Below, one piece after another: positions 10,839 to 33,244 of a stretch of 64,000 nt of DNA. The notes under the pieces were generated by a model. That model saw only the letters and a program-made list of their open reading frames with translations, was not told the DNA's origin and did not search any database. Numbering within the stretch: position 1 is the first letter of the stretch; each line of letters begins with the position of its first letter. Position numbers and translations under genes: made by a program. Source of the DNA: a virus; the IMG/VR virus record IMGVR_UViG_3300036981_000286, positions 15,594 to 79,593 of that record; one strand, 5' to 3'.

Positions 10839-10843
10839 CTGGA

Positions 10844-14977: not shown

Positions 14978-15001
14978 ATAACACTTGCAAGGAAGCAAAT
15001 C

Positions 15002-15817: not shown

Positions 15818-15852
15818 TAAAATACTCGTATCTCAATAAACGGAGCGTTACT

Positions 15853-16140
15853 ATGAGTTTGTTTCAAGGCGTTTTAGCCGGATTATTTTTATTTACGCTA
15901 GTTTTGACGTACGTCAAACAACTAGCGCCTCTCGTCAAGCTGGCTGTTCCCGCTTTTTTTAACGATTCAGCCCCGAAGGTTCAGCCGTCAATTGCTGTTT
16001 CTCTCGTAGCGGATATTAAATCTGTCACAGAGTTGCGAGATCGGCTGGCCGCGGAAGGCTGCGAAGATGGCGTAACTGCGTGCACAACGCTGCTTCGCGT
16101 AATTGTCGAGTACCAACAACCGTCTAAGGGTGTTGTATGA
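15853..16140 (+). CDS. Hypothetical membrane-anchored protein
   Basis: N-terminal hydrophobic helix; RBS present. Confidence 0.6.
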   Translation: MSLFQGVLAGLFLFTLVLTYVKQLAPLVKLAVPAFFNDSAPKVQPSIAVSLVADIKSVTELRDRLAAEGCEDGVTACTTLLRVIVEYQQPSKGVV

Positions 16141-16607: not shown

Positions 16608-16609
16608 CA

Positions 16610-17116
16610 ATGATCAGTTTTTTGCCGTTTGTAATTATAAGCGTTGTTTTGCTGGCGTATTTAACGTGGCGCACTCTAGCAGTGCCCACAAGCGCGCCAG
16701 TTGGTTTGAGGGTGATTCAACTTAGGAGTAATCAGATGGCAGATATGCTTTCATATAAAGTTTCCGCCGGCGTGCCCGTTGATGGGGATGTCGTGTCGCG
16801 TGTTGTAACGGTAACAGTAAACGGCGAATCGAAGGGTTCGACGTCGTACGCTGGTGATTCAGTTGAGCTCGGCGTAATCTCTGTGCCGCAAGATTCGAAT
16901 GTTGTTTTAACGCTTGTCGACGTCGATGACGCCGGCAATTCGTCGGAGCCCGCCACGGTAACGTTTGTTGCCGTTGATACGGTTGCCCCGACGCAGCCCG
17001 GGTTTTTCGGGGTAACGCTTGTTGGCGAGACACACGAAGCGGCAACGCAAGTCGTGGTCGATACCGACACAGTAGTCGAGCCCGCCACAGTAGTCGAGCC
17101 CGAGTCGGCTGAGTGA
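16610..17116 (+). CDS. Acidic beta-sandwich (Ig/FN3-like) protein with an N-terminal TM; possible internal start at 16736
   Basis: VDVDDAGNSSEP motif; AGGAG precedes the in-frame ATG at 16736. Confidence 0.55.
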   Translation: MISFLPFVIISVVLLAYLTWRTLAVPTSAPVGLRVIQLRSNQMADMLSYKVSAGVPVDGDVVSRVVTVTVNGESKGSTSYAGDSVELGVISVPQDSNVVLTLVDVDDAGNSSEPATVTFVAVDTVAPTQPGFFGVTLVGETHEAATQVVVDTDTVVEPATVVEPESAE

Positions 17117-17133
17117 AATAGCTGGAGCACGCC

Positions 17134-18159
17134 ATGGCCGATAAAGAGCAATTTTTTGACAGCGTCTTTGACGTTGCAAAAGCGTATCAGACAGGTTTCG
17201 TGGGCGCTTACAGCAACCCCGAAGCTGCGGAAGCATTGCGCGCGCAAATTAAAAGTGCGGGCGGTATTCCGGATGGGGCCATGGCGTGCTTCGCGTATGG
17301 TCTCGAGGAAACGGGCAAAGGAAAACTTTCTGCGCCCTTCCTTGAGATCTTAAAAATTTATCCAGACTGCCTCCCGGGCGGCTCGCAGGGTCGAGGGGAT
17401 TGCGTAAGCTGGTCGACTCGGAACGCCTGTCTCGGCACTATGTGCTGCGATATTACTTGCGGCATTCCTGACCCAAAATCAGGCCGCCTTGAAGGCCCGC
17501 CAGAAGTTAGCGATACAGCGCGTTTAAACGGCGTGCTCAGCACTGAAGCGTTTTACAACTGGCGGCGGCATGGGGGCGACGGCTGGAGCTGCGCTGAAGC
17601 TGCTCAAGTAGCGCTAAACGAAAGCGGCCTCTGGCTGCGTAAAAAATACGACGAGATTAACGTTGATTTTACGCAATACAGTTCGCGTAACGCTGGTCTC
17701 TACGGCTCCCGCACTCCGCCAACCTCTTGGCTTGCGGTAGGTAAAGACCACCTCGTACAAACAATCACCGAGGTCGAAATATATGAAGTCTTGCGCGACT
17801 TACTCGCTAACGGTTATTGCGTAAGTTCCTGCGGCAGTGAGGGCTTCTCGGACCAGCGCGACGCTAATGGCGTGTCTAAGCGCAGCGGGAGCTGGGCGCA
17901 CGCGCTTGCTTATCTGGCCGCGGACGACCGGCCCGAGACTATTAAACTTTACGGCGAGCCGCTTATATTAGTCCAAAACAGCTGGGGCGCGTGGAATGAA
18001 GGTGGCCGCAGGATTTTAGGCACAGCCTTTGACATTCCAGTTGGCGCGTTTTGGGCAAAATGGTCTGATATCAAAAACCGATACATGGTGGCGATTTCTG
18101 GCGTAAACGGTTGGCCGCGTAAAAAACTGCCGCATTATGGCTCGCTAGGCAATATTTAA
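17134..18159 (+). CDS. Papain-like (C1) cysteine peptidase
   Basis: QGRGDCVSW (Gln/Cys), WAHAL (His), VQNSWG (Asn). Confidence 0.85.
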   Translation: MADKEQFFDSVFDVAKAYQTGFVGAYSNPEAAEALRAQIKSAGGIPDGAMACFAYGLEETGKGKLSAPFLEILKIYPDCLPGGSQGRGDCVSWSTRNACLGTMCCDITCGIPDPKSGRLEGPPEVSDTARLNGVLSTEAFYNWRRHGGDGWSCAEAAQVALNESGLWLRKKYDEINVDFTQYSSRNAGLYGSRTPPTSWLAVGKDHLVQTITEVEIYEVLRDLLANGYCVSSCGSEGFSDQRDANGVSKRSGSWAHALAYLAADDRPETIKLYGEPLILVQNSWGAWNEGGRRILGTAFDIPVGAFWAKWSDIKNRYMVAISGVNGWPRKKLPHYGSLGNI

Positions 18160-18186
18160 ACACCTGTTTGATTTGGAGTAGTTCCT

Positions 18187-18528
18187 ATGTTCGAGTGGCT
18201 TATGCTTTTAGCCCCGGTGACGTATGCCGAATTGCCCAAAAAAGATTGTGTCGGCATGGTCGCTGCAGAGGCTGCTTATGTTTCTTTCCTTCCTGACGCG
18301 ATTCCGCCAAAAGTATTAGTGGACACAAAGGACTGCACAAGATGTAATCGTACGGGTAGAATTCCGACGGGAGACAGTAATAACCCGTGGACGGACTGCC
18401 CGGAATGTGAGCCGAAAGACGGCAAAGTAAACGCCGAGCCAAAACTGTCGCCGGTTATGAAATTACAGAAACGCGCGGTACCTGATAATTGTGCATCTGG
18501 TACATGCCCAATTCCGGCAAATAAATGA
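18187..18528 (+). CDS. Small protein with a DnaJ-like CxxCxxxG zinc finger
   Basis: CTRCNRTG...CPEC; C-terminal CASGTCP. Confidence 0.6.
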   Translation: MFEWLMLLAPVTYAELPKKDCVGMVAAEAAYVSFLPDAIPPKVLVDTKDCTRCNRTGRIPTGDSNNPWTDCPECEPKDGKVNAEPKLSPVMKLQKRAVPDNCASGTCPIPANK

Positions 18529-18535
18529 GGACATC

Positions 18536-19036
18536 ATGGCTGACCGCAAGGATGTGATTGGTAAGTGTTACACGTACCGCGGCCTTAAATTTTACGCACA
18601 AAACGGGTTTGTGTGTCTGCACGACGAGCAGACAGGCGAGTTCTTCGTGTTAACCCGCCGCGAGTTTTTGGAGCGTGCCACCGCGCTGAGTGCTGAGGCA
18701 AAACAACTGCGCGAGATGATGGTTAAGAACCCTGGCAAGCGGTGGCTTTCCCACGACCGCATGGATTTACAGCAGGGCGTAGACATGATGGTCGAGTGCG
18801 CGCGTGACGCTAAAAATCAGGGCGACAGGACAGACCCGAAAGTAGACGCGTGGTTTATGCGGCACCGGCCAAACCGTAAAAGTGCTGTTTCGCTATCCTC
18901 GTCTGGTAATTTCTCAACCGCCCTGCCCCCTTCTCTGCCTGTAGGTAGGGATACCGGCAAGCATGTATCGCCTGACTTTTCTGTTTCTTCGGGGCAATCT
19001 GGTAAAAAGAAGCTCATCCTCCCCGGAGACTTCTGA
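18536..19036 (+). CDS. Hypothetical protein
   Basis: ATG 18536 after GAGGA; TGATG coupling to the next gene. Confidence 0.7.
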   Translation: MADRKDVIGKCYTYRGLKFYAQNGFVCLHDEQTGEFFVLTRREFLERATALSAEAKQLREMMVKNPGKRWLSHDRMDLQQGVDMMVECARDAKNQGDRTDPKVDAWFMRHRPNRKSAVSLSSSGNFSTALPPSLPVGRDTGKHVSPDFSVSSGQSGKKKLILPGDF

Positions 19037-19455
19037 TGGATATTACAGAGCAGGATGCGTTCAAGCTTGGGTTTTTGACCCGATGCGCCGAGGAAAAGCT
19101 GACCGGCGACTCACTCGAGGCGCGGCTGGATCAAGTTGCTAGTTTTAATAAACGAGCTACAGAGTTAGTTAAAGTCTCGCCTGTGACTGTTGGCGGCGGA
19201 ACTGCGGCTGACATGGTCGGCTCTGCCGGTAAAAGCTTGGTAGATGCTTTCCAGATGATCACCGCCGTCCCGATCGCCGGTTCAATTATTGGGGGCGCGG
19301 GGCTTGGTTATGGTACCGCCAAAATGCTTGAGCCAAAACTAGATGACGACGAGCTTAAAGCGCAAGAATTAGCCGCAACTTACAAGCTTTACGCGGATAA
19401 AGCTAAAAACCGCAAAAAGGTTCGTCAGTACCGTCTGGGGCGTGGGTCGTCGTGA
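19036..19455 (+). CDS. Glycine-zipper head-module protein
   Basis: NKRA site; IAGSIIGGAGLGYG helix. Confidence 0.65.
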   Translation: MDITEQDAFKLGFLTRCAEEKLTGDSLEARLDQVASFNKRATELVKVSPVTVGGGTAADMVGSAGKSLVDAFQMITAVPIAGSIIGGAGLGYGTAKMLEPKLDDDELKAQELAATYKLYADKAKNRKKVRQYRLGRGSS

Positions 19456-19802
19456 GTCTCAAAAAATACTACGGCGAAACCGGCGGCGAGTCGCATGGCG
19501 GCGAGCGGCTGCACTGGCCCGGAACAGTGGACGGGTATCCTGTCCGCGGAAATACGCTGCCGCCCGATCTTAAAAAAGAAGAGATGGAGAACATCGATCT
19601 CCGCCTCGATTTTAAGAGCAAAATGTTTGAATTATGGGATCCGGCGCAGAAAGCGGAATTTGACGACGTAAACGATAAAATAGTCAATGGATGGTATTTA
19701 CTTCAACGCCGTAACGACAACTGGGACGACGAACATAAGCATTTTCGTGTCTGGGTAGAGTGGGCGCAAGTTTACGGTATGTTGCCGCCAAAGGTGCAAT
19801 AA
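19452..19802 (+). CDS. Hypothetical protein
   Basis: 116-aa ORF coupled on both sides. Confidence 0.7.
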   Translation: MSLKKYYGETGGESHGGERLHWPGTVDGYPVRGNTLPPDLKKEEMENIDLRLDFKSKMFELWDPAQKAEFDDVNDKIVNGWYLLQRRNDNWDDEHKHFRVWVEWAQVYGMLPPKVQ

Positions 19803-20767
19803 TGACAACAAAAACAGCTAGCTGGCTCACTCAATACGTTACAGACCCGCTGAGTTCGGGGCTTGATTACGCTCTGGGCGGCGCAATGCCGAACGGCGCT
19901 ACTGAGCAAAACGCCGCGGCGGTCGCGGCCCGCGCGGCAGCGCAGGCGGACGCCGCCTCGGCCAAAACGCTTGGCCCCGAACTGCTGAAGTACACGCTTG
20001 CCGGCGCGGGGTTAGGGCTAGGCGGCGCAAAGCTGTATCACTTACTTAGCGACATGAATAAGCCAAAACAAAAATACACAAAGTTTGGCCCGGGTTCTAA
20101 ATCAATCGACGAAGACGAGAAGATCGCCGAAGCGGGCATTTTAGAGACTATTGGCAGCGCGCCCGGTAATTTGCTCAATAAAGTGTTGAGCAACCCCGCC
20201 GATCGCAACGCAGCCCGCGCAGCTGCTTTAGTCGCGACTACCGGGCTTGGCATATACGGCGGCTCGTCGCTTATGAATGCTATTATAGCGCAAAAGAAAA
20301 AAGACGAATTGAACGACCAAGTCGACGACGCAAAAAAAGAATATCAGCGCGCGTTAATCGGGCGTAAAGCCGCAGCGCTCGATGAGGCGTTTAATAAGTT
20401 TGCCGAAGTTACAAAAAAAGCCGATAACCCAATTGCAACTGCTATCGGCAGCACATTTTCAGGCCCGCTCACCGCAGTCTCTAGCGCCGCAAAAGCTGCA
20501 ATGCCGACTGTTGGTGGTGCCGCCAGCGCCGCGGTAGCGGCTCCGTTTGACATTATGCGGCAGTATCCGGCTGTCTGGAATGCGTACGTAATGTCAACGC
20601 TTGGGCTTGGCGCGCTGTCCGGGAAAATGACATACGACTGGACGCGTGAACGCAGCCGAGATAAGGCTGTATCGCGCGCACAGAAAGCACGAGCGCGCAT
20701 TGCCGGAGCAGCGCCAATTTATGTGGACCCAGAACAAATTGCGGCTATTAAGCAAATCGCTGACTAA
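19802..20767 (+). CDS. Glycine-zipper head-module protein with three repeated helix units
   Basis: TAATG overlap; three GLG-containing hydrophobic helices, each preceded by a K-x-A site (TKTAS, EKIAE, TKKAD). Confidence 0.65.
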   Translation: MTTKTASWLTQYVTDPLSSGLDYALGGAMPNGATEQNAAAVAARAAAQADAASAKTLGPELLKYTLAGAGLGLGGAKLYHLLSDMNKPKQKYTKFGPGSKSIDEDEKIAEAGILETIGSAPGNLLNKVLSNPADRNAARAAALVATTGLGIYGGSSLMNAIIAQKKKDELNDQVDDAKKEYQRALIGRKAAALDEAFNKFAEVTKKADNPIATAIGSTFSGPLTAVSSAAKAAMPTVGGAASAAVAAPFDIMRQYPAVWNAYVMSTLGLGALSGKMTYDWTRERSRDKAVSRAQKARARIAGAAPIYVDPEQIAAIKQIAD

Positions 20768-20784
20768 CTCGATGAGCCGCTGCT

Positions 20785-23700
20785 ATGCCACTTCCCGAAC
20801 AGTCAAACTCGATCCTAGGACCGCAGACCCGAGAATTCGGCGACGTTAACGCGTTACGTCAAAATATCTTTCAGCAATCGCAGCAGTCTGCAATTGGCGT
20901 AGCGCCGTTCGAGCCCGTTTTTACTCGAGAAGATATTTTTAATACTGCGGCTACTCAAGCCCGCGGTATTAAACCGGTCCAGAATGATCTGTATACGCTC
21001 AGCCTCGGCGATGTGGGTTACGAAGGCCCCGAGCGGTTTACAAAAAAAGATCACAAGCAAGCTGTGCTTTCTCACGGCTCCCTCGCGCGAAAGCTGCGCG
21101 GTACGTGGAACCTGACTGACAATAAAACGGGAACTGTTATCGCTCAGAAGCGGTCAACGTTGGCTAACGTGCCGTACATGACCGACGCTGGTACGTTTGT
21201 GCATAACGGCGTGGAATATACGCTGGCCCATCAGATGCGACTTCGCCCGGGCGTATACACCCGCGAAAAAGACAACGGCGAACTTGAAGCGCATGTAAAT
21301 GTGCTCCCCGGAAAAGGTCGAATGCACCGATATTATCTTGACCCCAAAACGGGTGTATTCAAGATCAATATCGGACAGGCGCAAATTCCGCTTATGCCGC
21401 TGCTCAAAGCGCTCGGCACTTCGGAGCAAGATATTCGCAAGGCGTGGGGCAACGAGCTTACCGCCGTGAATATGGAAAAGGGCGACGCCGGCACGCTAGA
21501 CAAGCTGTACAGCCGGCTTGTCTACAAAGCCATACCCGGAATTGACGCCCCGGGAAAACAAAAAGCCATCGCCGACGAGTTTTTAAAAATGGAGATGGAT
21601 CCCGAGGTGACAAAGCGCACGCTTGGCGAGCCTATCAAAAATTTAACGCCTGACGCCATTCTCAAGATCACGAAGAAGCTGATTGCCGTAAACCGGAAAG
21701 AGACCGAATCAGACGACCGCGACAGCATGGCTTTTCAACAAGTTCTTGGCCCTGAAGATTTAATTGCTGAGCGCTTCTCAAAAGATAGGGCCATGCTGCG
21801 GCAATTGCTATGGAAAGCCACGGCAAAGAAAACACTCGATCATGTACCGACTGGTGCGTTTAACAAAGCGATCGTGGCTGCGCTTATTGGTAGCGGTCTC
21901 GGGTCTAGTCTTGAGGAAATCAACCCGGCGGAAATTTACGACCACCAAACGCGGGTTACCAGATTAGGCGAGGGTGGCATTGGCTCGCTTGACGCCGTGC
22001 CGCAAGAATCGCGCAGCGTGCAGCCGAGTCACTTCGGGTTTGTAGATTATCTCCGCACGCCGGAGTCTGGAAAAGTCGGCGTGGACATGCGGTTCGCCCG
22101 CGGAGCAGTAAAAGGCTCTGACGGCAAGGTCTACATGAAAGTAAAGAATCTGAAGACAGGCGAGCTTGAGTACAAGTCGCCGCAGGACATTGCTGATATG
22201 CCTCTCGTGTTCCCGGGTGAGGATAAAAGCGACCTCCCGACCGTGGCCGCAATTGTTAACGGCAAGATGAAATACATTCCGCGCGATCAGGCGCAGTACA
22301 TGGCTCCAAATATGGATGCGTCATTCTCGACGTTGTCTAACATGGTGCCGCTTAAATCCATGATGAAGGGGCATCGCGTTATCATGGGTTCGCGCATGTT
22401 TACGCAGGCGCTGCCCCTTGTTGGCGCTGAATCGCCGTTTATTCAATCAGCCATTGCCGACGACCCTTCGCGCTCGTACGAAGACGATATGGGCAAGAGC
22501 ATGGGCGCCGCATACGCCGACGAGCTTTCGCAAGTTGTATCTGTTACGCCAGACGAGATTGTTTTACGCAATAAAGACGGCGAGCAAAAAACAGTTGAGC
22601 TTTACAATGACGCGCCGTTTAACCGAAAAACTTTCTGGACACAAACAGCAGCGGTAAAACCCGGCGACACAGTTAAACCCGGCCAGCTTATTGCTCAGTC
22701 AAACTTTACAGACAAGAACGGCACCGCAGCGCTTGGTTTAAATATGCGCGTGGGTTACTTACCGTTTCGAGGGCTTGTGTACGACGACTCAGTGGTGATA
22801 TCTGAGTCGGCAGCAAAGCGCCTGACATCTGAGCACATGTATCAGCACGAAGCCGAATCGGACGACAACACGCACATAGACAAGAAGAAATTTATTAGCT
22901 TGTTCCCGAGTGAGTACGACAAAAAAACTTTAGATAACTTTGACGATAATGGCGTAATTAAAAAAGGCGCTGTTGTCACGTACGGCGACCCGCTTATTCT
23001 CGTGAGCAAAGCGCGAGAAACCACATACGGACAAGTGTTTCGCGGCAAGTCGGCTAACTTCACCAATGACTCTGTTACTTGGGAGCACCACTCGCCGGGC
23101 GTTGTTACAGACATCGCTAAAACAAAACACGGCTACAGCGCAATTGTTAAAAGCAAAGCCCAAATGGAGGTAGGCGACAAACTTACCGGGCGATTCGGTG
23201 ACAAGGGTGTCGTGGCTGGGATTATCGCTGACGATCAAATGCCGCAGGATGCGCAAGGCCGCCCAATGGAGGTGCTTGTCAGCCCGCTTGGTTTAGCCAG
23301 CCGAATTAATCCGTCGCAGATCGTAGAGGCAGCGCTCGGTAAAGTAGCTGAGAAAACTGGGCAGCCGTTCAAAATTAAAGATTTTGACGACCAGACCGAC
23401 CTTATCGATTTTGCTAAAGCAGAATTACGAAAACACCAACTCACAGATCTTGAGGATGTTACTGATCCCGAGACTGGGCGCAAAATTAAAGGCGTGCTTA
23501 CTGGTAATCGTTTTTTCATGAAACTGCACCACACGAGCGAAAGCAAAGCGCAGGGCCGGTCTACTGGCGGATACACGGCTGAGGGCGCGCCAGCCAAGGG
23601 CGGGTCCGAAGGCGCTAAGCGCGTCGGCATGCTCGATCTGGGCGCTTTGCTCTCGCACGGCGCCGGTCAGGTTATTCGTGACGCCAAAATGGTTCGCGGG

Positions 23701-25233
23701 CAAGCTAATCCGGAATACTGGTCGCAGGTAATGGCGGGCTATACGCCGCCGCTTCCAAAGATTCCGCAAGTTTACACAAAATTCGTTGAGCAGCTTCGGG
23801 GCGCAGGCATTAACACCGTGCGCGAAGGCACAAAGACGCACATCATGGCGTTGACCGACAAAGAAATTGACAAACTCACCGGCGACCGCGAAATACAAAA
23901 CGCCGATACGGTTGATTGGAAATCTGGCTTGCGGCCTAAAACTGGTGGGCTTTTTGACGAAAGTCTGACCGGTGGCCATAACGGTAATCGCTGGGCTAAG
24001 GTCACCCTGCACGAGCCCATGCCGAATCCGGTTATGGAAGAGCCAATTAGGCGCACTCTTGGGCTTACTGAAAAAAAGTTCAGAGATATCTTAGCCGGCC
24101 AAGAGAAGCTTAACGACGAAACCGGTCCAATGGCTATTAAGAACGCGCTAAAGCGTATTAATGTGCCTAAAGCTATAGAGCAGGCGCGTCAAGATATTCA
24201 GTCCGGACGCAAGGTCGCCCGGGATGCTGCCGTCCGCCGATTAGCCTTTTTAAAAACCTCAGAAAAAACTGGCACACACCCCGAAGAGTGGATGTTGACC
24301 AAGATGCCGGTAATACCGCCAGCGTTTCGGCCCGTCTCGACGATGGGGCAGAAAAAACTACCGCTCGTTGCCGACGCAAATTATTTGTACAAAGAATTGC
24401 TCGACGCAAACTCTGTATTAAAAGATTCTGCTGGCGTACTTACCGACGTGGGCAACGAACGGCTAGGGCTGTACGACGCAATGAAGGGCGTGACTGGCAT
24501 GGGCGACCCTGTGCAGGCCAAGAACGTCGAGCGGCGTGTGCGCGGCTTTTTATCTCAGATTTTTGGAAGCTCGCCAAAGTACGGCACTGTGCAACGCAAA
24601 CTTCTCAGCTCAACTGTGGATCTTGTTGGTCGCGCTGTAATTACACCTAATCCGGATTTGGATATGGATCAGGTCGCCCTCCCCGAAGAAAAAGCGTGGG
24701 AAATTTATAAGCCGTTTATTGTGCGCGGGCTGGTTCGTCGTGGGTTACCGCGCATGGAAGCAATTAAGTCGTTTGACGACAAAAACAATATGGCTCGCGG
24801 TGAATTAAACCAGCAAATGAGTTCTCGGCCAATTATTATTAATCGCGCTCCGGTACTGCACCGTTACGGCATAATGGCGTTTTATCCGCGCCTTACTAAA
24901 AATAAAACAATGGAAGTGAGCCCGCTCGTAACCAAGGGTTTCGGCGCTGACTTCGACGGCGACGCCATGCAATTCCATGTGCCGAGCACTGACGCCGCGG
25001 GCCGAGAAGCCGCTGAAAAAATGCTGCCAAGTCGTAATTTATTTGCGGCGTCAACGTTTAAGGGTCATTACACCCCAGTAGCGGAATTACAGTCTGGCCT
25101 GTATGTTGCTTCCAACCGGATTAACAAGAAGTCGCCCACGCGGGTCTTTAAATCCGCTAAAGATGCTATTGCCGCTTATCGGCGTGGCGATATTGAGGTC
25201 GACACGCCGGTGCATATTGTGGAGAATGATTAA
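20785..25233 (+). CDS. rpoBC: Phage multisubunit RNA polymerase: beta subunit fused to the N-terminal half of beta-prime
   Basis: Beta motifs: GTFVHNG, RLGEGG...HFGFVDYLRTPES, YDDSVVISE, GDKLTGRFGDKG, MKLHH. Beta-prime motifs: GGLFD, PVIPPAFRP, GRAVI, NRAPVLHR and the catalytic ADFDGD. Confidence 0.95.
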   Translation: MPLPEQSNSILGPQTREFGDVNALRQNIFQQSQQSAIGVAPFEPVFTREDIFNTAATQARGIKPVQNDLYTLSLGDVGYEGPERFTKKDHKQAVLSHGSLARKLRGTWNLTDNKTGTVIAQKRSTLANVPYMTDAGTFVHNGVEYTLAHQMRLRPGVYTREKDNGELEAHVNVLPGKGRMHRYYLDPKTGVFKINIGQAQIPLMPLLKALGTSEQDIRKAWGNELTAVNMEKGDAGTLDKLYSRLVYKAIPGIDAPGKQKAIADEFLKMEMDPEVTKRTLGEPIKNLTPDAILKITKKLIAVNRKETESDDRDSMAFQQVLGPEDLIAERFSKDRAMLRQLLWKATAKKTLDHVPTGAFNKAIVAALIGSGLGSSLEEINPAEIYDHQTRVTRLGEGGIGSLDAVPQESRSVQPSHFGFVDYLRTPESGKVGVDMRFARGAVKGSDGKVYMKVKNLKTGELEYKSPQDIADMPLVFPGEDKSDLPTVAAIVNGKMKYIPRDQAQYMAPNMDASFSTLSNMVPLKSMMKGHRVIMGSRMFTQALPLVGAESPFIQSAIADDPSRSYEDDMGKSMGAAYADELSQVVSVTPDEIVLRNKDGEQKTVELYNDAPFNRKTFWTQTAAVKPGDTVKPGQLIAQSNFTDKNGTAALGLNMRVGYLPFRGLVYDDSVVISESAAKRLTSEHMYQHEAESDDNTHIDKKKFISLFPSEYDKKTLDNFDDNGVIKKGAVVTYGDPLILVSKARETTYGQVFRGKSANFTNDSVTWEHHSPGVVTDIAKTKHGYSAIVKSKAQMEVGDKLTGRFGDKGVVAGIIADDQMPQDAQGRPMEVLVSPLGLASRINPSQIVEAALGKVAEKTGQPFKIKDFDDQTDLIDFAKAELRKHQLTDLEDVTDPETGRKIKGVLTGNRFFMKLHHTSESKAQGRSTGGYTAEGAPAKGGSEGAKRVGMLDLGALLSHGAGQVIRDAKMVRGQANPEYWSQVMAGYTPPLPKIPQVYTKFVEQLRGAGINTVREGTKTHIMALTDKEIDKLTGDREIQNADTVDWKSGLRPKTGGLFDESLTGGHNGNRWAKVTLHEPMPNPVMEEPIRRTLGLTEKKFRDILAGQEKLNDETGPMAIKNALKRINVPKAIEQARQDIQSGRKVARDAAVRRLAFLKTSEKTGTHPEEWMLTKMPVIPPAFRPVSTMGQKKLPLVADANYLYKELLDANSVLKDSAGVLTDVGNERLGLYDAMKGVTGMGDPVQAKNVERRVRGFLSQIFGSSPKYGTVQRKLLSSTVDLVGRAVITPNPDLDMDQVALPEEKAWEIYKPFIVRGLVRRGLPRMEAIKSFDDKNNMARGELNQQMSSRPIIINRAPVLHRYGIMAFYPRLTKNKTMEVSPLVTKGFGADFDGDAMQFHVPSTDAAGREAAEKMLPSRNLFAASTFKGHYTPVAELQSGLYVASNRINKKSPTRVFKSAKDAIAAYRRGDIEVDTPVHIVEND

Positions 25234-25256
25234 GGCCACCAAACAAGGAGATTTTC

Positions 25257-25973
25257 ATGTCCATGATCAATTACGAACTTTTGCGCCTTGCCCGCGCGAC
25301 CATGCAAAAAGCTGCCGCCGTACCACCACCGCCGGCTGATCCTGCCGCCATGGGCGGTATGGGGGCGCCTCCGATGGATCCGGCCGCTATGGGCGCTGAC
25401 CCGATGGCTGCGATGGCCGCTGCGCCTATGGACATGGGTATGGGCGCTGGCGCCCCTGCCCCGGCCCCTGCGCCCGCTCCGGCTCCGGCTCCCGCCCCGG
25501 CTCCTGGCGCCGCACCTGCTGGCGCGCAGCAAAAACTTAAGCCGGAACAAATGATGCAAATGATCGATTACCGCATGTACAACATGCAGCAGCAGCTTAC
25601 GGCGATCATGAACGCAATGGGCGTGCAATTGCCGCCTGAGGCGATTGTTCTCCCGCCGGGCTCGACCAGCGCACCGTCAGTTGAGTCGGCTTTGCCGGGC
25701 GCTGCTAACGCGCCTACGGCCGCAGCTGACCCTGCCGCTGCTGGGCAATTGCCACCGGATGTGTACGCCGGGCAAGACCCCACCCAAAACGGCGGCGCAG
25801 TAGCTCCGATCCCGCCCGCGAAAGCCGCTTGGTGGCAAGTTGACGAATCGCCAAAATCGGCTTCGTATATCGGTGACCCGGTTGCGCGCACAGAAGCGCA
25901 GCAAATTAACTTACAGGTTTCAGCGGACGCAGCTTCAGCGCTGTACAGGAGCTTGATGCGGAATGCGCGTTAA
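25257..25973 (+). CDS. Pro/Ala/Met-rich low-complexity head-module protein
   Basis: AAGGAG RBS; DPAAMG and PA repeats; QKAAA, AKAAW, PKSAS sites. Confidence 0.65.
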   Translation: MSMINYELLRLARATMQKAAAVPPPPADPAAMGGMGAPPMDPAAMGADPMAAMAAAPMDMGMGAGAPAPAPAPAPAPAPAPAPGAAPAGAQQKLKPEQMMQMIDYRMYNMQQQLTAIMNAMGVQLPPEAIVLPPGSTSAPSVESALPGAANAPTAAADPAAAGQLPPDVYAGQDPTQNGGAVAPIPPAKAAWWQVDESPKSASYIGDPVARTEAQQINLQVSADAASALYRSLMRNAR

Positions 25974-26205
25974 AACGCAGCACTATCTTCAACCGAGTGT
26001 TACTGACGCGCATAGCGTTATTGTTGAAGATCGTTTTGGAAATATTCTGTACGTAGCGGTAGAAGTAGACAACGGCGCTATCGTAACGGCGCAAGCAGGC
26101 GACAGTAATTTTGCTGCCGTCATTAAAGCGTTAGGTTTTGATAAAGTTACGACAGTGCACGATATTAAGCCAAAATCAATAGAAGAAACAAAGAGCTTGT
26201 TGTGA
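25963..26205 (+). CDS. Small hypothetical protein
   Basis: 80-aa ORF ending 1 nt before the second RNAP gene. Confidence 0.65.
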   Translation: MRVKTQHYLQPSVTDAHSVIVEDRFGNILYVAVEVDNGAIVTAQAGDSNFAAVIKALGFDKVTTVHDIKPKSIEETKSLL

Positions 26206-26206
26206 A

Positions 26207-28087
26207 ATGTTAAAAACAACGCTTGGCCAACTTCTGATAAACAGCGCGCTCCCGGCGGATATGCGCGACTACAATCGCGTATTAACAAAGAAAAACGTGA
26301 TTGACCTCGCTACTGATCTTGCCACGCGGTACCCAGACAAGTACCGCGAGGTGATGAAGCAGATGCAAGACATCGGCTCTGAAACCGCGTACACGACAAA
26401 CGGCATGTCTGTTGGCTTAGACGCAATCACGCCGTCGATTGCCGCGCGAAAAAAGCAGCAGGAAATTAAACAAAAATTGCGCGGCGTGCTGTCCGACGCG
26501 CGCCTTGACGACAAATCGCGAAACCTCAAAATACTTGAGTTATCGTCGCAGGCTCAAAAAGAACTTATCGACATTGTTTACAAAGACGCTGAAGAGCAAG
26601 ATAACCCGCTCTTTCATCAAGTGTCGTCTGGCGTTAAGGGAAATAAATTTCAGCTTAATAGCATTCTTGGCGCCGACATGCAGTACGTAGATCACCGCAA
26701 CGAGCCAATTCCAATTCCGGTGATGCACGGCTACAGTCAGGGCTTGCGTCCTGTAGAGTATTTTGCCGGAGCGTTCGGCACGCGCAAAGGTTTGATGGAC
26801 TTAAAAACCGCAACATCTGACGCTGGCTTTTTTGCCAAACAGTTAACGCAAATGAATCACAGGTTGCTTGTTACGTCTGACGATGAGGATCAGCCTGAGT
26901 TACTAGCCGGCGCCGATAATCGCGGCTTTCCGTCGGACGTTGACGATGTAGATAACGAAGGGGCGCTATTGGCCAGAGCCTCAGGTCCGTACAAACGGAA
27001 CACGGTGCTTACGCCAAAAATCTTAAAAGACCTAAAGCAACTTGGCATCAAAGACATACTTGTGCGTAGCCCCACGGTAGGCGGCCCGGCGGATGGCGGT
27101 GTGTACTCTAGAGACGTTGGGTATCGCGAAAAGAACCGGCTACCGCCGATTGGTGATTATGTCGGAATCGCCGCCGCCCAAGCATTAGCTGAGCCGGTCA
27201 CACAAAGCCAGATTTCGTCTAAACACTCTGGCGGCGTGGGCGGAGCTGGCGCTATTTCTGGATTTAAAGCTCTTAACGCTTTAGTTCAGGTACCGGAAAA
27301 ATATCCCAGCGGGGCCACGCACGCGCAGCTAGACGGCGCGGTACAGGAGATTCGACCAGCGCCACAGGGCGGTCATTACGTCATCGTTGCCGGAAAAGAA
27401 CATCACGTTCCAACAGACGTGGCGCTTAAAGTTAAAAAAGGCGATGTACTTGAGGCTGGTGACGTGTTGTCAGAGGGCATGCCCAGCCCGGCCGAAATAG
27501 TCAAATACAAAGGCGTCGGAGAGGGTCGCCGTTACTTCGTACAGGCCATGAAGCAGGTACTCGGTAATAGCGGAATCACAGGACATCGGCGTAACATTGA
27601 ATTGTTATCCCGCGGACTCATTAATCATGTCCGGTTGACCGACGAATACGGCGATTACGTGCCAGACGATATCGTGCCGTATTCTATGCTGGAGCGGTCA
27701 TGGCAGCCGAGAACCGGCAGCGTCCACGGTAACCCAAAAAGCCTAACTGGACATTATTTAGAAAAGCCGGTGCTGCATTACTCAATTGGCACTAAAATTG
27801 GCAAATCTGTTTTAGACAACTTTGACAAATACGGCATCAAAGACATTGAAGCCCACAAAGAGCCGCCGCCGTTTGAGCCCGAGATGGTGCGGGGTATGGC
27901 AAGCGCTACTACAGACCCGGACTGGATGACGCGCATGATGGGCTCGTATCAGCAAAAAAGCTTATTAAACGCTACACACCGCGGTGGCGTGAGTGACACG
28001 GCTGGCAGCAGTTTTGTGCCTACTTTAGCCCGCGGAGAGACGTTTGGCCTGTCGGGCGCGACTGCCGGATGGCAATCGCAACCATAA
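26207..28087 (+). CDS. rpoC: RNA polymerase beta-prime C-terminal half
   Basis: TTLGQLL; SGVKG; bridge helix EYFAGAFGTRKGLMDLKTATSDAGFFAKQL; trigger loop GIAAAQALAEPVTQSQISSKHSGG; RRNIELLSR. Confidence 0.92.
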   Translation: MLKTTLGQLLINSALPADMRDYNRVLTKKNVIDLATDLATRYPDKYREVMKQMQDIGSETAYTTNGMSVGLDAITPSIAARKKQQEIKQKLRGVLSDARLDDKSRNLKILELSSQAQKELIDIVYKDAEEQDNPLFHQVSSGVKGNKFQLNSILGADMQYVDHRNEPIPIPVMHGYSQGLRPVEYFAGAFGTRKGLMDLKTATSDAGFFAKQLTQMNHRLLVTSDDEDQPELLAGADNRGFPSDVDDVDNEGALLARASGPYKRNTVLTPKILKDLKQLGIKDILVRSPTVGGPADGGVYSRDVGYREKNRLPPIGDYVGIAAAQALAEPVTQSQISSKHSGGVGGAGAISGFKALNALVQVPEKYPSGATHAQLDGAVQEIRPAPQGGHYVIVAGKEHHVPTDVALKVKKGDVLEAGDVLSEGMPSPAEIVKYKGVGEGRRYFVQAMKQVLGNSGITGHRRNIELLSRGLINHVRLTDEYGDYVPDDIVPYSMLERSWQPRTGSVHGNPKSLTGHYLEKPVLHYSIGTKIGKSVLDNFDKYGIKDIEAHKEPPPFEPEMVRGMASATTDPDWMTRMMGSYQQKSLLNATHRGGVSDTAGSSFVPTLARGETFGLSGATAGWQSQP

Positions 28088-28151
28088 AACAGTGGATCGC
28101 AAAGTCAAATACAGGTAAATTATCAGTTATCTGTTTCCGAATAGCGCAAAT

Positions 28152-28167
28152 GCCGCATGGAGGTGGC
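28152..28167 (+). promoter_or_regulatory. RBS hairpin with ANGGAN hexaloop
   Basis: GCCGC-ATGGAG-GTGGC before the in-frame GTG at 28169. Confidence 0.55.
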
Positions 28168-28168
28168 T

Positions 28169-30571
28169 GTGTACAACAAAAAAAGTAACAAACCCGCTTG
28201 GAAGCAACAGCTCGAGAAGTTGGGGCAATACTCCCGCTCGAATGTTAAGTACGCGGCGTTAGGCGGCAACGGTGACGACACCCCGTTTGAGCAGGCATTT
28301 AGCAACTTAGCTCACGCTTACCTGCAAGACAAAGCTCCCGGCTTACTTGACCACGAAGTCGGCTTCCAGCTCCTTGACCGCAATAACGAAAATACCAAGG
28401 CTGTTGGTGTTTTTGCGTTTAAGCTCGGGACGATGTGGCTGTACGCGCCGATGTTCTTTTTAAACGGCGACTTAAAGGGCCACGAACTACTGTACCTGAA
28501 AAATCAGGACATGTTTGTACCGCTCAAAGAAAACTGGATTAATTATCTAGTTAACCGAAAACCCGGTATTCTTGGTCACGGCGTCGACCGCAGCCTTTCC
28601 CGGCTCGGCCAACGGCAGCCTGACTTTACGCAGCTTAGCCGCTCGCCGTCTAAGTTCGGTTCGGCAAACCCGACGCTTAAAGAAATGATCACAGAAGCCA
28701 TGCCGGCGTTTGCAAAAGCTGCAACGCTGAACACCTCCGCCGCATTTCAAGAAATCAGCGTGAGCCTCGATCTGGGTACTTTTTTAAAGTCGGCTCGGCT
28801 TGAGACACTCGACTTCCTCGTTAAGGCTTGTCAGCGCGCGCCGCAACTGGCGTCGGCTATTGAGCAGTTTCACGGGCTCAATATTATCAAAGAAGCAATT
28901 GACGCGGCCAAGATTCGTGAAAACGCGCCAAAAATCGCCAGCATTGTGTCAGAGGCGCCTGAGAAGCCAAAGGCTCTCAAGGGCTTAAAGATCGTAACTA
29001 TGGACGTAACGATCCAAACAATGCTGCCCCCGGGACACACAGAAGAAGATCAAGAAAAACTTCTTAACGACGGTATTCTTATCGACGATCAGCGCGACCG
29101 CGATAACGTGGCAATTCCGTATCATATCCAAGTAGATAAGAAGCTTTTCAACCCCACTCAAAGCGGGCTGTACGACATCCTTGTTAAGCCGGGCGACATT
29201 GAACGCTGTTACGTAGCCGCGTATCCGATGGGCGCGGCCAAGCGCGCAGACTTTATTACCGTAGTTCGCGTAGACGGCAAACCGGACTGGGTTAATACCC
29301 GCGCGGATCAAGTGTTCGCGCTAGCCCGAATTGAAGGCGAAGAGTTTGACAAGTGGTTTGACGCGCTGCCAGAAGCCAATAGCGTGTCCAAGTCTGGCCG
29401 CCACATGGCGATCTGCAAGCGCGGCGACGCAACTGTTCCGTTTCGCGTTATCCGCGAGTACGGCGAATCGGAGTACGGCACGACAAGTTACGAGGCGCAT
29501 CTTGAAGATCACTCGAAATTCCCGCCCAAGGGGCACATTTCACCGTGCTGTTACACCGACCCGCTAAATTACGATAAATGGCGCGACGGCGTGCGCATCC
29601 ACCTTAACGGCAAAAAGGGCGGCAGCTTGCGCTCAAGCATGGGCGACATCTTCGTCCCCGAGGGCTACAAGCTGCTCAAAGTCAGCAAGGGGGCGGACGA
29701 CGCTGAGTCTGCCGATGACCAAGGCGCTTGCGGTTGCGGCGAAAGCGACCAGCCAGCTCTCATGCCCGGAAATCTTATTGACGCGCAGCTTTGCTTAATG
29801 AGCAAAACGGCTTCGCTAGAGCTAACGCATAACGGCACGGAAGTCGAAATAAATGGCGGAAAGAAACTTTCCGAAAAACAAGCGTTGGTAAATCTGCTTG
29901 TTGAACATCATCTGCGAGAAGACGCCGCCCGTGAAATTTTAACTCGGGCTGCCTCGTCCCGTAAGTTCTCTTGCCGGCTTAAGCTAGCAGCTGATCCGTA
30001 TGGCGGCCCGATGATGATTAACGGCGCGCCCAGTGCGCCCACTATGCCGTCACCGGTAATGGGCGGCGAGTTTGTCATGGGTACAAATGTGCCCACGCAA
30101 CTCGGTATTGATCAGGGCGTACCGGTTCCCGACATGCTTGCTCTTAATACGGACCGCAGCGTTTACAACCCAAACCCGATGTACGACAAGGGCGTGCTGG
30201 GCTCCGGAACTGACCAAGAACTGCAACGCGTTCTTGACGCGGCGCAGTCTGGCCAAAAAGAAGTATTTGATACGGCTATGATCGGCAGCATGTTACGCGC
30301 CGTGCGTGACGACTCGCTCGTGGATCGCTACATGGGCGACTTAACCAAGGGGTTAGATAAGCTCGGCCGTATCTTGTTTATGTTCTATTGGCACGGCGAC
30401 CGATTCGCTGACCGCTACGGCAAGAGCGACATGCCCGAACTTGAAGACTCGCTGCGTAACGCGTTTGAAATGCTCGGCGATGTTATTCTCTTCCTGAAGC
30501 AGAAGACGATCGACCCGAACCCGAACAATAGCGCGCAGGATATCGACCTGAGCGCCGTAGCTAACTCGTAA
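28169..30571 (+). CDS. Large head-module protein (unknown function)
   Basis: ORF 28157..30571; GTG 28169 follows GGAGG; sites VKYAA, AKAAT, SKTAS, LKLAA. Confidence 0.7.
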   Translation: MYNKKSNKPAWKQQLEKLGQYSRSNVKYAALGGNGDDTPFEQAFSNLAHAYLQDKAPGLLDHEVGFQLLDRNNENTKAVGVFAFKLGTMWLYAPMFFLNGDLKGHELLYLKNQDMFVPLKENWINYLVNRKPGILGHGVDRSLSRLGQRQPDFTQLSRSPSKFGSANPTLKEMITEAMPAFAKAATLNTSAAFQEISVSLDLGTFLKSARLETLDFLVKACQRAPQLASAIEQFHGLNIIKEAIDAAKIRENAPKIASIVSEAPEKPKALKGLKIVTMDVTIQTMLPPGHTEEDQEKLLNDGILIDDQRDRDNVAIPYHIQVDKKLFNPTQSGLYDILVKPGDIERCYVAAYPMGAAKRADFITVVRVDGKPDWVNTRADQVFALARIEGEEFDKWFDALPEANSVSKSGRHMAICKRGDATVPFRVIREYGESEYGTTSYEAHLEDHSKFPPKGHISPCCYTDPLNYDKWRDGVRIHLNGKKGGSLRSSMGDIFVPEGYKLLKVSKGADDAESADDQGACGCGESDQPALMPGNLIDAQLCLMSKTASLELTHNGTEVEINGGKKLSEKQALVNLLVEHHLREDAAREILTRAASSRKFSCRLKLAADPYGGPMMINGAPSAPTMPSPVMGGEFVMGTNVPTQLGIDQGVPVPDMLALNTDRSVYNPNPMYDKGVLGSGTDQELQRVLDAAQSGQKEVFDTAMIGSMLRAVRDDSLVDRYMGDLTKGLDKLGRILFMFYWHGDRFADRYGKSDMPELEDSLRNAFEMLGDVILFLKQKTIDPNPNNSAQDIDLSAVANS

Positions 30572-30581
30572 TAGGTGAAAA

Positions 30582-30977
30582 ATGGCTGGCACTATTTGGT
30601 CTGGCGAAACAAGCTTTTCGGCGCCCTCCGCAACAGAAACAGTCGTGACGCTAAAAGTACCGCATCGCGGCGTGCTGCGTGGCTATAGCCTGACGCAAAC
30701 GTCTGGCGCGAACGTTGGGGCATCGGCGGCGTTATTCACAAGCAAGCAAGATACAGCGCCAAATTCCACACTGCCTGCCGAGGCGTTCCACATACTAGAC
30801 ATCACACTTGGCTCTACCAGCAAGGTAGACAATCATGATCTAAACGTGGCGTACTTAAATCGCGACGGTTCTCCGACTAATGCTCAAAGATATCTTTACT
30901 TGAAAATCACACCTGCTGGTTCTGGCATCAAGAATTTCGTGATGTCTGTAACGATTGAAACCCCGACGCTGCGATAA
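30582..30977 (+). CDS. Hypothetical beta-rich protein
   Basis: AGGTG RBS; TAATG coupling. Confidence 0.7.
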   Translation: MAGTIWSGETSFSAPSATETVVTLKVPHRGVLRGYSLTQTSGANVGASAALFTSKQDTAPNSTLPAEAFHILDITLGSTSKVDNHDLNVAYLNRDGSPTNAQRYLYLKITPAGSGIKNFVMSVTIETPTLR

Positions 30978-31906
30978 TGCTTCAAGCTCTGCGGGATAAT
31001 CCGCTTCGCGCGCCGCACTGGCGTTGGCTGCGGGCTGTGCAAATTGATGCTGGTGGCCCAAAGCCGTCCAAAGCCGTTGACGGCTCCGACGGCTTTGAGT
31101 GGATTCGGCGCATTGTGCGGTTAAAGCGGCGGCACGCTATGGCTGCAAATAAACCACACGCTGTATACGCCTTAGTGCGTTTAGACCGCGGGTTATTCTG
31201 GGCGCATTCAATTTGGGCAGAAGAAAAGGCCCCGACACGTTGGGCTATCGAGGCTTACATTCTGGCCGGCGCGTCTGACGAGGAAATTGCTGAAAAAGTG
31301 GGTTGCGAGCCGGACGTAATTGCCGCATACGCTGCCGTGTTTTTTGATGTGCGCGGAAAGCTGCATAATGGCAATTATATCGTAAACGTTGTGATGGCAG
31401 ACGCCGTTTCCCGCGGGCTGACCGAGCGCCAATACGACCTGCTGTGGAAAATGTTTGGCTACCAAGGCGGTGTTTACGTTCTCGACGCGCTTATCGGTAA
31501 GTTCACAAATATCCATAAGCCGCAAAATGCCAACGAGGTTTCTGAGTTTTTCCAGACCTCGGCCATTAATTCTATGCGACATAAAGCCGCCGTGGCCGCG
31601 CTCACGGTGCCAATTAACACGCACACCCAGCTTCCGCTCCTCGAGTCGTACGTTAAGTACGTTGAAATCGAGCGGACCACGGAAAACACCGAAAAGTCTC
31701 AAATTAGTATTGTTCAAAATATTGGTGCTATGCTTAGTCATCTGCCGTTCAAAATTGGTACAAAGCTGGATTCCGAGGGGGATAAAATGGTACCCTTTGA
31801 TAATAACGCCGCAGAATTGCGCAGTGACGAATTAATGATTGTGGCGGCTGGCGGCAAGCTCGAAAATCAAAAGATGCTTGAGAACTTAAAGTTCCCGGGA
31901 GAATAA
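30977..31906 (+). CDS. Hypothetical protein with a possible helix-turn-helix
   Basis: GASDEEIAEKVGCEPDVIAAY. Confidence 0.6.
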   Translation: MLQALRDNPLRAPHWRWLRAVQIDAGGPKPSKAVDGSDGFEWIRRIVRLKRRHAMAANKPHAVYALVRLDRGLFWAHSIWAEEKAPTRWAIEAYILAGASDEEIAEKVGCEPDVIAAYAAVFFDVRGKLHNGNYIVNVVMADAVSRGLTERQYDLLWKMFGYQGGVYVLDALIGKFTNIHKPQNANEVSEFFQTSAINSMRHKAAVAALTVPINTHTQLPLLESYVKYVEIERTTENTEKSQISIVQNIGAMLSHLPFKIGTKLDSEGDKMVPFDNNAAELRSDELMIVAAGGKLENQKMLENLKFPGE

Positions 31907-31909
31907 CGA

Positions 31910-33244
31910 ATGCGTCCTTTAAGCAAAGACGCCGAGACAAAACTGCTCTCGGCTATCGAAAAGGCCGCCGCGCTCGTGAATGACGGCGCGGAACCTAACG
32001 ACGCGATTATAAAAGTCGCGACAGCGGAGAATTTTCCCGCTAATTACGTAAACCTTATGGTGCACGCCTACAACACAGGCCGCACCACCAAACAACGTGA
32101 GCTTGGCGAGACAGTTAGCGAAAAATCAGCAGATTTTAAGCTCGCCGACGTGGACACAATTATTGACGCGCTTTACCCCAAAGCCGTAAAAACCGCAGGC
32201 GAGATTATTCGCGACACGGCTATCTCAACTGAGTACGCGGTATCGCCGTCCGGGTTTTTAGCGCGCCGAAAAGCGACTATGGAAAAAGCGGCTGCTGCGC
32301 TTTTGCCGCTCCCGGAAAAGACGTTTACGCCGCCACCGAGAGACGAGCACGCTGCGGTCATGCGCGAGCAAAGCCGCAAGGTAGCAGAAAAGCGCGCGAC
32401 AGAAGAAATTCGCCGTGTTGCTACCGTGGCGTACAGCAAAGCCGCGGTCGCGATGGACGAGCTTGCGACGTATTTTCGGTCGCCGGGCAATATGAGTTTT
32501 GGAGACGCTGTTCGGGAGACTGAGCTGCGACTTGGCGACGAAGGCGTATCAGTGCTCAAAAAGCTTGCGGAAGTTTACCCGTGGCTGAATAAACAAGCCG
32601 CCACCGGCAAACACCACTTCGGCGACAACGGCCCGTACGCCACTGTGCAGACAGTTCTTGAAAAACTGGCTGAGTACAAGGAGTATCAGGGCAAATTTAA
32701 CGCTGCCAGCCCACCGCCTAAAGAGAAGAAAGCGGAAATGGTTGTTACGACAGGCTCGATTCTGCGAAACCCCGCCGAGGAACCCGTCGAACTAAAAAAA
32801 GCTAACGCGTTGTCGGGATACCCAACCGGCCCGGTTTCGGCAACGCGTTCGCTGGGCGAGACGATGTGGCAGGGCGCCAACAGCTATATTAAATCACCAG
32901 ATGAAATGCGCAATGAGGCATTTAAAGACATTACAGATCCAGACCATGACCGGAAGCTGCGCAATATTCGAGCGCAGGGCGTGCTGGCTGATTTGGTAAC
33001 TAACGATCCTGTTATTTCAGGTCACGATCCGCGGGAGGTTGCAAATGCGTTTAATGAATTGGCTGAGGTCGCTCCTAGTTTCATGGATTCGTCCGCAACC
33101 GTGCAGGCTCTTTTGCGAAAAAGACTCGAGGCCGGGCAGCTTGCTGATTTTGACATAAAGCAGCTGTTAGAGCTTGAAAAAATTAAGGCCGAGCGGACGC
33201 GTAACCTCATTGACGTACAAGATAAACAACGTGGTTTAGTTTGA
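31910..33244 (+). CDS. Helical head-module protein very rich in K-x-A motifs
   Basis: EKAAA, IKVAT, EKSAD, VKTAG, EKAAA, KKLAE, NKQAA, EKLAE, EKKAE, LKKAN. Confidence 0.7.
   Translation: MRPLSKDAETKLLSAIEKAAALVNDGAEPNDAIIKVATAENFPANYVNLMVHAYNTGRTTKQRELGETVSEKSADFKLADVDTIIDALYPKAVKTAGEIIRDTAISTEYAVSPSGFLARRKATMEKAAAALLPLPEKTFTPPPRDEHAAVMREQSRKVAEKRATEEIRRVATVAYSKAAVAMDELATYFRSPGNMSFGDAVRETELRLGDEGVSVLKKLAEVYPWLNKQAATGKHHFGDNGPYATVQTVLEKLAEYKEYQGKFNAASPPPKEKKAEMVVTTGSILRNPAEEPVELKKANALSGYPTGPVSATRSLGETMWQGANSYIKSPDEMRNEAFKDITDPDHDRKLRNIRAQGVLADLVTNDPVISGHDPREVANAFNELAEVAPSFMDSSATVQALLRKRLEAGQLADFDIKQLLELEKIKAERTRNLIDVQDKQRGLV

Follow-up and report, generated by a model that had tools for sequence, protein, structure and literature searches.

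The stretch of viral DNA analysed here (the window, 64,000 nucleotides) corresponds to positions 15594-79593 of the IMG/VR virus record IMGVR_UViG_3300036981_000286 (79.6 kb; CheckV completeness estimate 39%), and it encodes an RNA polymerase (RNAP) in which a complete beta subunit is fused, within one chain of 1482 residues (positions 20785-25233 of the window), to the first half of beta-prime. The remainder of beta-prime is a separate chain of 626 residues (26207-28087). Both zinc sites of the bacterial enzyme are gone, neither chain contains a cysteine, no alpha or omega gene can be detected, and a sigma-70-family factor is encoded at 58636-59481. We consider it rather probable that this is the single bacterial-type RNAP of a clade of myoviruses of about 200 kb, and that it would depend on sigma, do without alpha, and be packaged and ejected together with the DNA. 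The polymerase locus and the sigma gene lie on the plus strand, which carries nearly all the genes of the window.

The frame at 20785-25233 is uninterrupted. Residues 155-931 of its product match three Pfam families of beta (Rpb2_2, Rpb2_3 and, at E 1e-47, Rpb2_6), and residues 1160-1411 match two of beta-prime (Rpb1_1 and, at E 7e-24, Rpb1_2). Searches of the PDB with phmmer likewise align the chain with bacterial beta up to about residue 1010-1030 (E 2e-70) and with bacterial beta-prime from about residue 1086 (E 1e-48). In MAFFT alignments, which for the motif comparisons were made against Salmonella RpoB and RpoC, the beta homology ends at …LRGAGIN (residue 1010) and beta-prime resumes nine residues on, at IMALTDKEI, corresponding to about beta-prime residue 18. 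With only these nine residues between the two homologies, the fusion is direct, head to tail. The beta portion (residues 1-1010) occupies 20785-23814, the junction TVREGTKTH, placed by the alignments, 23815-23841, and the N-terminal half of beta-prime (residues 1020-1482) 23842-25230. In E. coli numbering, the fused chain extends to about residue 553 of beta-prime, and the 626-residue chain, in which Pfam finds Rpb1_5 (E 3e-21), starts at about residue 569. Both barrels and the whole active centre are contained in one polypeptide, and the second chain holds the bridge helix, the trigger loop and the jaw. An AlphaFold2 model of residues 861-1300, computed from an alignment of 29 rows, has a predicted local distance difference test score (pLDDT) of 72-92 across the junction and of 72-96 from the last beta strands, through the loop replacing the zinc finger, to the clamp helices, and in fold it is most similar to cyanobacterial gamma and bacterial beta-prime. 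The 626-residue chain modelled on its own gave a poor prediction (mean pLDDT 51, about 25 over the former zinc site).

The catalytic motifs can be followed through both chains. In the beta-prime barrel, NADFDGD reads GADFDGD (residues 1387-1393; 24943-24963) and the metal-binding motif DxDGD is present; across the family, the first residue of the heptapeptide is mostly glycine, with asparagine in about one fifth of the members. GRHGNKG of beta reads GRFGDKG (23188-23208), with its lysine retained, and in the trigger-loop helix TQLTMRTFH reads TQSQISSKH, with His936 retained. The bridge helix (26777-26851) and the trigger loop (27200-27289) align to residues 778-805 and 926-940 of Salmonella beta-prime, and the clamp helices, DANYLYKELLDANSVLK (24373-24423), are modelled as helix with pLDDT 87-95. 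The presence of ADFDGD, the GRFGDKG lysine, the bridge helix, the trigger-loop histidine and the clamp helices suggests a catalytically active enzyme. Its beta portion is without the insertion SI2 and its flap tip is about 10 residues shorter. Judging from the substitutions in the rifampicin pocket (Q513S, F514S, D516E, S531T and I572D; pocket region 21889-21978), the enzyme would be insensitive to rifampicin.

Neither zinc site has survived. Relative to Salmonella RpoC, the fused chain lacks 32 residues, among them the N-terminal zinc finger with C70, C72, C85 and C88, and at the site of the deletion (23944-23994) it reads GGLFDESLTGG-HNGNRW. The second site has zinc-free replacements at 26870-26899 and 27062-27124, where C814 is replaced within SDDEDQ and C888, C895 and C898 are replaced within VRSPTVGGPADGGVYSRDVGY. 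The zinc-free motif VRSPxVGGPxDGGV[YF]A[KR]DVGYREK is kept in every one of the 113 unit-length relatives of the 626-residue chain. What a first-pass annotation of this DNA had observed is confirmed by these results, namely the joining of beta to beta-prime through ADFDGD in one chain, the bridge helix and trigger loop in a separate gene, the deleted zinc finger, the cysteine-free second chain with its lost zinc site, and the two altered motifs; its interpretation as a whole is partly supported, as set out below.

The layout is widespread. The fused chain is 71-100% identical to more than 120 clusters formed at 90% identity; most of these are 1450-1490 residues long, a few carry insertions, and their contigs reach 212 kb. 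When a junction-spanning query of 703 residues was run against 1.84 billion representatives, the best 150 matches (clusters at 50% identity) all crossed the junction, with E <1e-193. The same frame is found, at 98% identity, in two IMG/VR contigs from other metagenomes, and near-identical DNA is present in metagenome runs from runoff, fresh water and sediment, the last possibly being the sample from which the record came. That the fusion might be an assembly error, or the product of a decaying gene, is an explanation to which we attach practically no weight: assembly error is refuted by the 90%-identity clusters and the junction-spanning search, the frame is equally continuous in hundreds of assemblies made independently and in two lineages of cultured phages, and a separately assembled contig, possibly from the same sample, covers 21869-26206 with zero differences. 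This layout is shared by hundreds of related phages and also by a few in culture. The family is abundant: metagenomes from fresh water, runoff and sediment contain clusters of it by the hundred. Its members are annotated just as 'beta' and 'beta-prime', and our literature search found no paper describing this architecture or fusion in phages. Across relatives, the RNAP chains are 70-98% identical where the flanking ORFs (open reading frames) are only 33-60% identical, which, together with the conservation of the zinc-free motif, indicates purifying selection on the chains.

Among cultured phages, the same layout is found in Salmonella phage Arash (OQ632216; PMC10585845), with gp206 (1525 residues), gp216 (606 residues) and the sigma factor gp10, and in the Vibrio phages D69, D148 and D181, in which beta is fused to the N-terminal half of beta-prime and the C-terminal half is separate. 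The fused chain of Arash and the Vibrio phages is 32% identical to that of the window over 97% of the length. Arash and D69 carry the same 32-residue zinc-finger deletion and belong to the same clade of the tree described below, and the sigma factor of Arash is homologous to that of the window. Unlike the window, they retain the second zinc site and, apart from the four cysteines in it, their chains are cysteine-free; their catalytic motif reads AADYDGD instead of GADFDGD; the genes between their two RNAP genes are not common with those of the window, and the gene order around the RNAP also differs. By this comparison, the second zinc site was lost specifically in the present clade. In the Arash paper the genes are labelled beta and beta-prime, and neither the fusion nor the zinc loss is mentioned (PMC10585845).

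Profile searches for alpha (PF01000, PF01193) and omega (PF01192) gave no match in the present record (G000), in a complete relative of 203,206 bp with terminal repeats and an RNAP 74% identical (G001), in Arash or in D69, whereas 14 of 14 control genomes match these profiles. A single catalytic beta-prime domain is encoded in each of G001, Arash and D69. The subunit inventory of the first-pass annotation, which had recognised neither alpha nor omega, is borne out on both, and is corrected by the recognition of a sigma gene. This ORF (58636-59481; 281 residues, no cysteine) matches Sigma70_r3 with 38.6 bits and Sigma70_r4 with 25.0 bits, both above the cut-offs, is related to the gp10 locus of Arash (tblastn, E 2e-19), and sits in a late-looking operon on the baseplate side. 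In the stretch where region 2 would be expected, THLLSQMQSLRRL, the aromatic residues that sigma-70 uses for melting of the -10 element are absent. The earlier proposal of a minimal enzyme that may be independent of alpha was a fair inference in view of the absent SI2 and the shortened flap tip.

The two RNAP chains, with 2108 residues together, contain no cysteine at all. At the average of 0.93% cysteine found in the 58 main ORFs of the window, about 20 would be expected, and chance is therefore excluded (about e^-20). The depletion covers six consecutive ORFs at 19452-28087 (2877 residues) and recurs in the sigma factor. Since the sheath and tail proteins retain 6-7 cysteines each, it is specific to this block and not general to late or structural proteins. 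It is also a property of the family: 109 of the 119 close clusters of the fused chain are cysteine-free, as are all 113 unit-length relatives of the 626-residue chain. Such ORFs could mark a set of ejected proteins. Besides the sigma factor, the window has further cysteine-free ORFs at 51775-55437 (1220 residues) and 31910-33244 (444 residues).

We propose the following model for the assembly and use of the enzyme. The covalent link between beta and beta-prime would take over part of the role of the alpha dimer in assembly, so that no phage alpha or omega would be needed, and promoters would be chosen through the phage sigma-70-family factor from the baseplate operon. The enzyme would be packed in the capsid and ejected with the DNA, would unfold, cross the oxidising periplasm and refold without metal, and, once delivered, would transcribe the early genes independently of the host. 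Packing and ejection would be the most likely reason why the chains, the sigma factor and their neighbours have become devoid of zinc sites and cysteines. Virion-packaged RNAPs are known from N4, from phiKZ (the virion RNAP) and from crAss-like phages. That the enzyme is carried in the virus particle is probable, to judge from the imperfect proteomics of Arash, the position of the genes and the local cysteine-free block. The RNAP genes are located in the virion half of the genome, within a gap-free array of ORFs. In virion preparations of Arash, gp206 gave the most spectra of any protein (3516), and gp216, the sigma factor gp10 and the helicase gp217 were also contained in them (PMC10585845).

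Several observations weigh against this model. Packaging has been measured only in Arash, whose fused chain is 32% identical to the present one, and the Arash preparation listed 116 proteins, including ribonucleotide reductase and kinases, with carry-over of abundant infection proteins allowed for by the authors (PMC10585845). If the enzymes of Arash and D69 are packaged, the zinc site that they retain means that zinc loss is not required for packaging. The absence of alpha was established with Pfam profiles, a result with which an analogue of divergent sequence, or the recruitment of alpha and omega from the host, would be compatible. Region 2 of the sigma factor has no Pfam match and, together with the shortened flap tip, this leaves holoenzyme formation not assured; Asn458 of NADFDGD is glycine in the clade, a change that may affect catalysis. 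Some of these points can be turned into an alternative in which the same two chains are not packaged but made after infection, for middle and late genes, with the host RNAP reading the early genes, and in which cysteine was lost for another cause, for instance oxidative conditions or cheap refolding. The place of the sigma gene in a late-looking baseplate operon, the zinc site retained in Arash and D69, and the Arash preparation, which was not stringent, would all agree with it. We nevertheless regard it as fairly unlikely, given that the spectra of gp206 exceed those of the major capsid protein of Arash (PMC10585845), that the RNAP genes are located within the virion gene block, beside a cysteine-free ORF that looks membrane-active, and that cysteine is retained in the tail and sheath proteins of the same phage.

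A different objection concerns assembly. The two chains might be only the catalytic part of the enzyme, with host alpha2, and perhaps omega, borrowed as an assembly platform. The phage chains resemble bacterial beta and beta-prime far more closely (E 1e-70 and 1e-48) than the phiKZ-type enzymes do, so that surfaces contacting alpha could survive, and no phage substitute for alpha was identified. Yet the phiKZ and AR9 enzymes provide a precedent, as they work without alpha or omega (PMC7598289). The family, moreover, stands outside all sampled bacteria on a long stem and its hosts are apparently diverse (Salmonella, Vibrio and freshwater bacteria), so that a contact surface for host alpha is less likely to have been conserved, and a packaged enzyme would require that host alpha be packaged too. 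We therefore judge the borrowing of host alpha unlikely. The packaged, sigma-dependent and alpha-free enzyme remains our preferred reading. Its most far-reaching form, a self-sufficient holoenzyme of three polypeptides with no alpha, omega, zinc or cysteine, which would be loaded into the capsid, ejected through the tail, refolded and independent of the host from the first minute, is put forward only tentatively, as a possibility with an appreciable chance of being correct.

Comparison with known polymerases shows which elements of this layout recur elsewhere. Beta-prime is cut after the catalytic barrel, within about 20-30 residues of the cyanobacterial rpoC1/rpoC2 boundary, with residue 23 of the 626-residue chain aligning with residue 5 of cyanobacterial RpoC2. 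According to a review, phiKZ and AR9 have their beta-prime cut at the cyanobacterial site (PMC7598289). The earlier statement that phiKZ-type RNAPs are split differently is thus right for beta, which is whole and fused here and split there, and wrong for beta-prime, which is cut at the same site. The beta-prime cut site recurs in several lineages, and what is special here is that beta is fused to the front piece. The phiKZ and AR9 enzymes also have no recognisable sigma factor and come as two paralogous sets, virion and non-virion, whereas in the present family there is one catalytic domain per genome, and a sigma factor is present. The greater divergence attributed to phiKZ-type RNAPs was evident in our searches: PHROG families of the phiKZ/AR9 type match the fused chain weakly (phrog_3295, E 3e-22; phrog_2987, E 2e-14), and no phiKZ or AR9 chain appears among its 60 best PDB matches.

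In cyanobacteria and plastids, beta-prime is likewise split, into gamma (rpoC1) and the rpoC2 product, but beta is separate, and cyanobacteria keep alpha, omega and the zinc sites. The bacterial core shares with the window enzyme the core motifs, the clamp fold and the presence of a sigma-70-family factor; it differs in having alpha and omega, a separate beta, an uncut beta-prime, both zinc sites, SI2 and a longer flap tip. Joining of the beta C-terminus to the beta-prime N-terminus is known from the rpoB-rpoC fusions of Helicobacter and Wolbachia and from the engineered, tethered beta::beta-prime of E. coli; in these, beta-prime is whole, both zinc sites are kept, and alpha and omega are used. 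Among other phages, Cobetia phage Carin-5 has a bacterial-like polymerase with an adjacent sigma gene and a beta-prime in one gene (1083 residues), whereas in Yersinia phage YerA41 beta-prime is also cut after the barrel, into two genes (556 and 518 residues). In both, as well as in Rhizobium phage RHph_Y65, beta and beta-prime are separate genes and the N-terminal zinc finger is kept. Like the window and the mReC lineage treated below, these are tailed phages whose beta and beta-prime homologues can still be aligned with those of cells. Carin-5 and YerA41 (L023 and L146 in our locus set) are related to each other, with a compact beta of about 925 residues that is 49% identical between them. 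Another IMG/VR record, from an uncultured phage (IMGVR_UViG_3300035698_024138, L018), encodes at 3984-12034 an unsplit beta-prime (1274 residues) followed by beta (1408 residues). The N-terminal zinc finger is absent from this enzyme too, and its deletion therefore arose more than once or marks a wider group. A locus search of IMG/VR found no further relatives of the Carin-5 and L018 proteins.

The relationships were analysed in a tree of concatenated beta and beta-prime, the latter up to about residue 560 (51 rows, 1414 columns), calculated with IQ-TREE under LG+C20+F+G4 in a quick search, with support from the Shimodaira-Hasegawa-like approximate likelihood ratio test (SH-aLRT); archaeal outgroup, phiKZ/AR9 and mReC sequences are not contained in it. 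All 24 fused forms group in one clade (SH-aLRT 100, stem 1.15), and 23 bacteria from at least 10 phylum-level groups fall on the other side of the branch (support 100, stem 0.88). The Carin-5/YerA41 lineage and the L018 phage are on long branches whose position is without support (10). The tree shows a single origin of the fused forms and no nesting of these inside a sampled bacterial phylum, and nothing more.

It had also been suggested that the enzyme may belong to mReC (multi-subunit RNA polymerase-encoding Caudovirales), a published lineage of RNAP-encoding tailed phages. Some traits would agree with this, since the window comes from a tailed phage whose beta and beta-prime homologues match cellular models, and the position of the family outside the sampled bacteria resembles that reported for mReC (PMC7481178). 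We compared one of the 14 parts of Supplementary Data 2 of the mReC paper, with excerpts from the next. In the rows of that portion, beta (about 900-1560 residues) and beta-prime (about 900-1370 residues) are separate chains, and no pair of about 1480 and 620 residues occurs among them (PMC7481178); the text of the paper (Weinheimer and Aylward 2020) mentions no fusion. Searched at E <=1, the Gp23-type capsid marker of mReC (PF07068, VOG11186) matches none of G000, G001, Arash and D69, a weak criterion given its presence in only 8 of 97 mReC contigs (PMC7481178). The large-terminase marker of mReC, PF03237/VOG01069, matches Arash with 25.5 bits, above the cut-off, and scores about 12 bits in D69 and G001; the fragment G000 gives no match. 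In the tree, moreover, the fused clade has no supported link to the sampled phage polymerases of Carin-5/YerA41 and L018. Membership of mReC is not supported by the layout of the rows compared or by the capsid marker, and we consider it quite improbable.

To our knowledge, an alpha-type platform and structural zinc are found in all cellular RNAPs, the known exceptions being the phiKZ and AR9 enzymes. These, however, are so divergent that comparison with the bacterial enzyme is hard. The present family, in spite of having lost alpha, omega, zinc and cysteine and having shifted its subunit boundaries, aligns residue by residue with bacterial beta and beta-prime and keeps a factor of the sigma-70 type. 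It therefore lends itself, as a simple system provided by nature, to the question of which functions truly require alpha, omega and the zinc sites. A cultured model is at hand in Arash, which grows on Salmonella Typhimurium. If the self-sufficient holoenzyme proved real, it would be the smallest sigma-dependent RNAP of cellular type known, and the first enzyme of cellular type with its chemistry reshaped for delivery through a phage tail. If packaging were confirmed, it might become possible to recognise ejected phage proteins in sequence data by their lack of cysteine.

The genes around the polymerase form a conserved array. In all relatives with 70-98% RNAP identity, and as far as their contigs extend, the order is kept as a 116-residue ORF, a 335-residue ORF, the fused chain, a 238-residue ORF, an 80-residue ORF, the C-terminal beta-prime chain, an 804-residue ORF and a 131-residue ORF. 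The small ORFs among these diverge far more rapidly than the RNAP genes. No gap exceeds 35 nucleotides within 15853-28087, and the polymerase genes appear to be part of one very long transcription unit. A scan of 14000-31000 for sigma-70-consensus promoters and terminators gave counts at or below the shuffled expectation, and a k-mer search of 32 intergenic gaps found at most a weak enrichment of GCTAGAA, with no extended motif.

Between the two RNAP genes, the 238-residue ORF (25257-25973), rich in alanine, proline and methionine and without cysteine, is always present in the clade, with 44-96% identity in relatives and no Pfam or PHROG match. The start of the 80-residue ORF (25963-26205), also cysteine-free and conserved in the clade, overlaps its end, and the C-terminal beta-prime gene begins one base past the 80-residue ORF. 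A complex prediction for the C-terminal beta-prime chain with the 80-residue protein scored 0.00, which is uninformative either way on binding. In the 238-residue ORF, a length difference of 6 nucleotides at 25491 is seen in one relative, and the low-complexity (Ala-Pro)n tract at 25459-25719 draws contigs of unrelated organisms, with a summed depth of 128 versus about 10.

Directly upstream of the fused chain are two cysteine-free ORFs (19452-20767) of 116 and 335 residues. The longer (19760-20767) is rich in alanine and glycine, has three apparently membrane-spanning stretches and evolves fast, with 33-45% identity where the RNAP has 72-86%; a role in ejection or in the membrane is possible. 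As a candidate for an analogue of alpha it was rejected on account of its composition, its membrane-like stretches and its rapid evolution. The 804-residue ORF downstream was considered as the equivalent of the Arash helicase gp217, but gave no Pfam or PHROG match and hence is not to be equated with it.

Many relatives of the two chains are longer, reaching 1800-3350 residues for the fused chain and about 1000 for the C-terminal beta-prime chain, through inteins or homing endonucleases. Intein or LAGLIDADG homing-endonuclease domains were found in the fused chain P0152 and in the long C-terminal chains P0300, P0323, P0330 and P0396, and the inserts of two relatives of the fused chain, P0036 and P0124, have no Pfam match. 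In the Vibrio phages D181 and D148, a homing endonuclease lies inside the gene, of which the copy in the window is without an insert. Elsewhere in the window PHROGs recognises little, namely the tail sheath at 43923-46826 and a Nudix domain; the latter corresponds to a Nudix box (PHROG nudix families, E 2e-9) in an ORF of 644 residues at 10844-12778, which has 12 cysteines and belongs to the same long plus-strand array.

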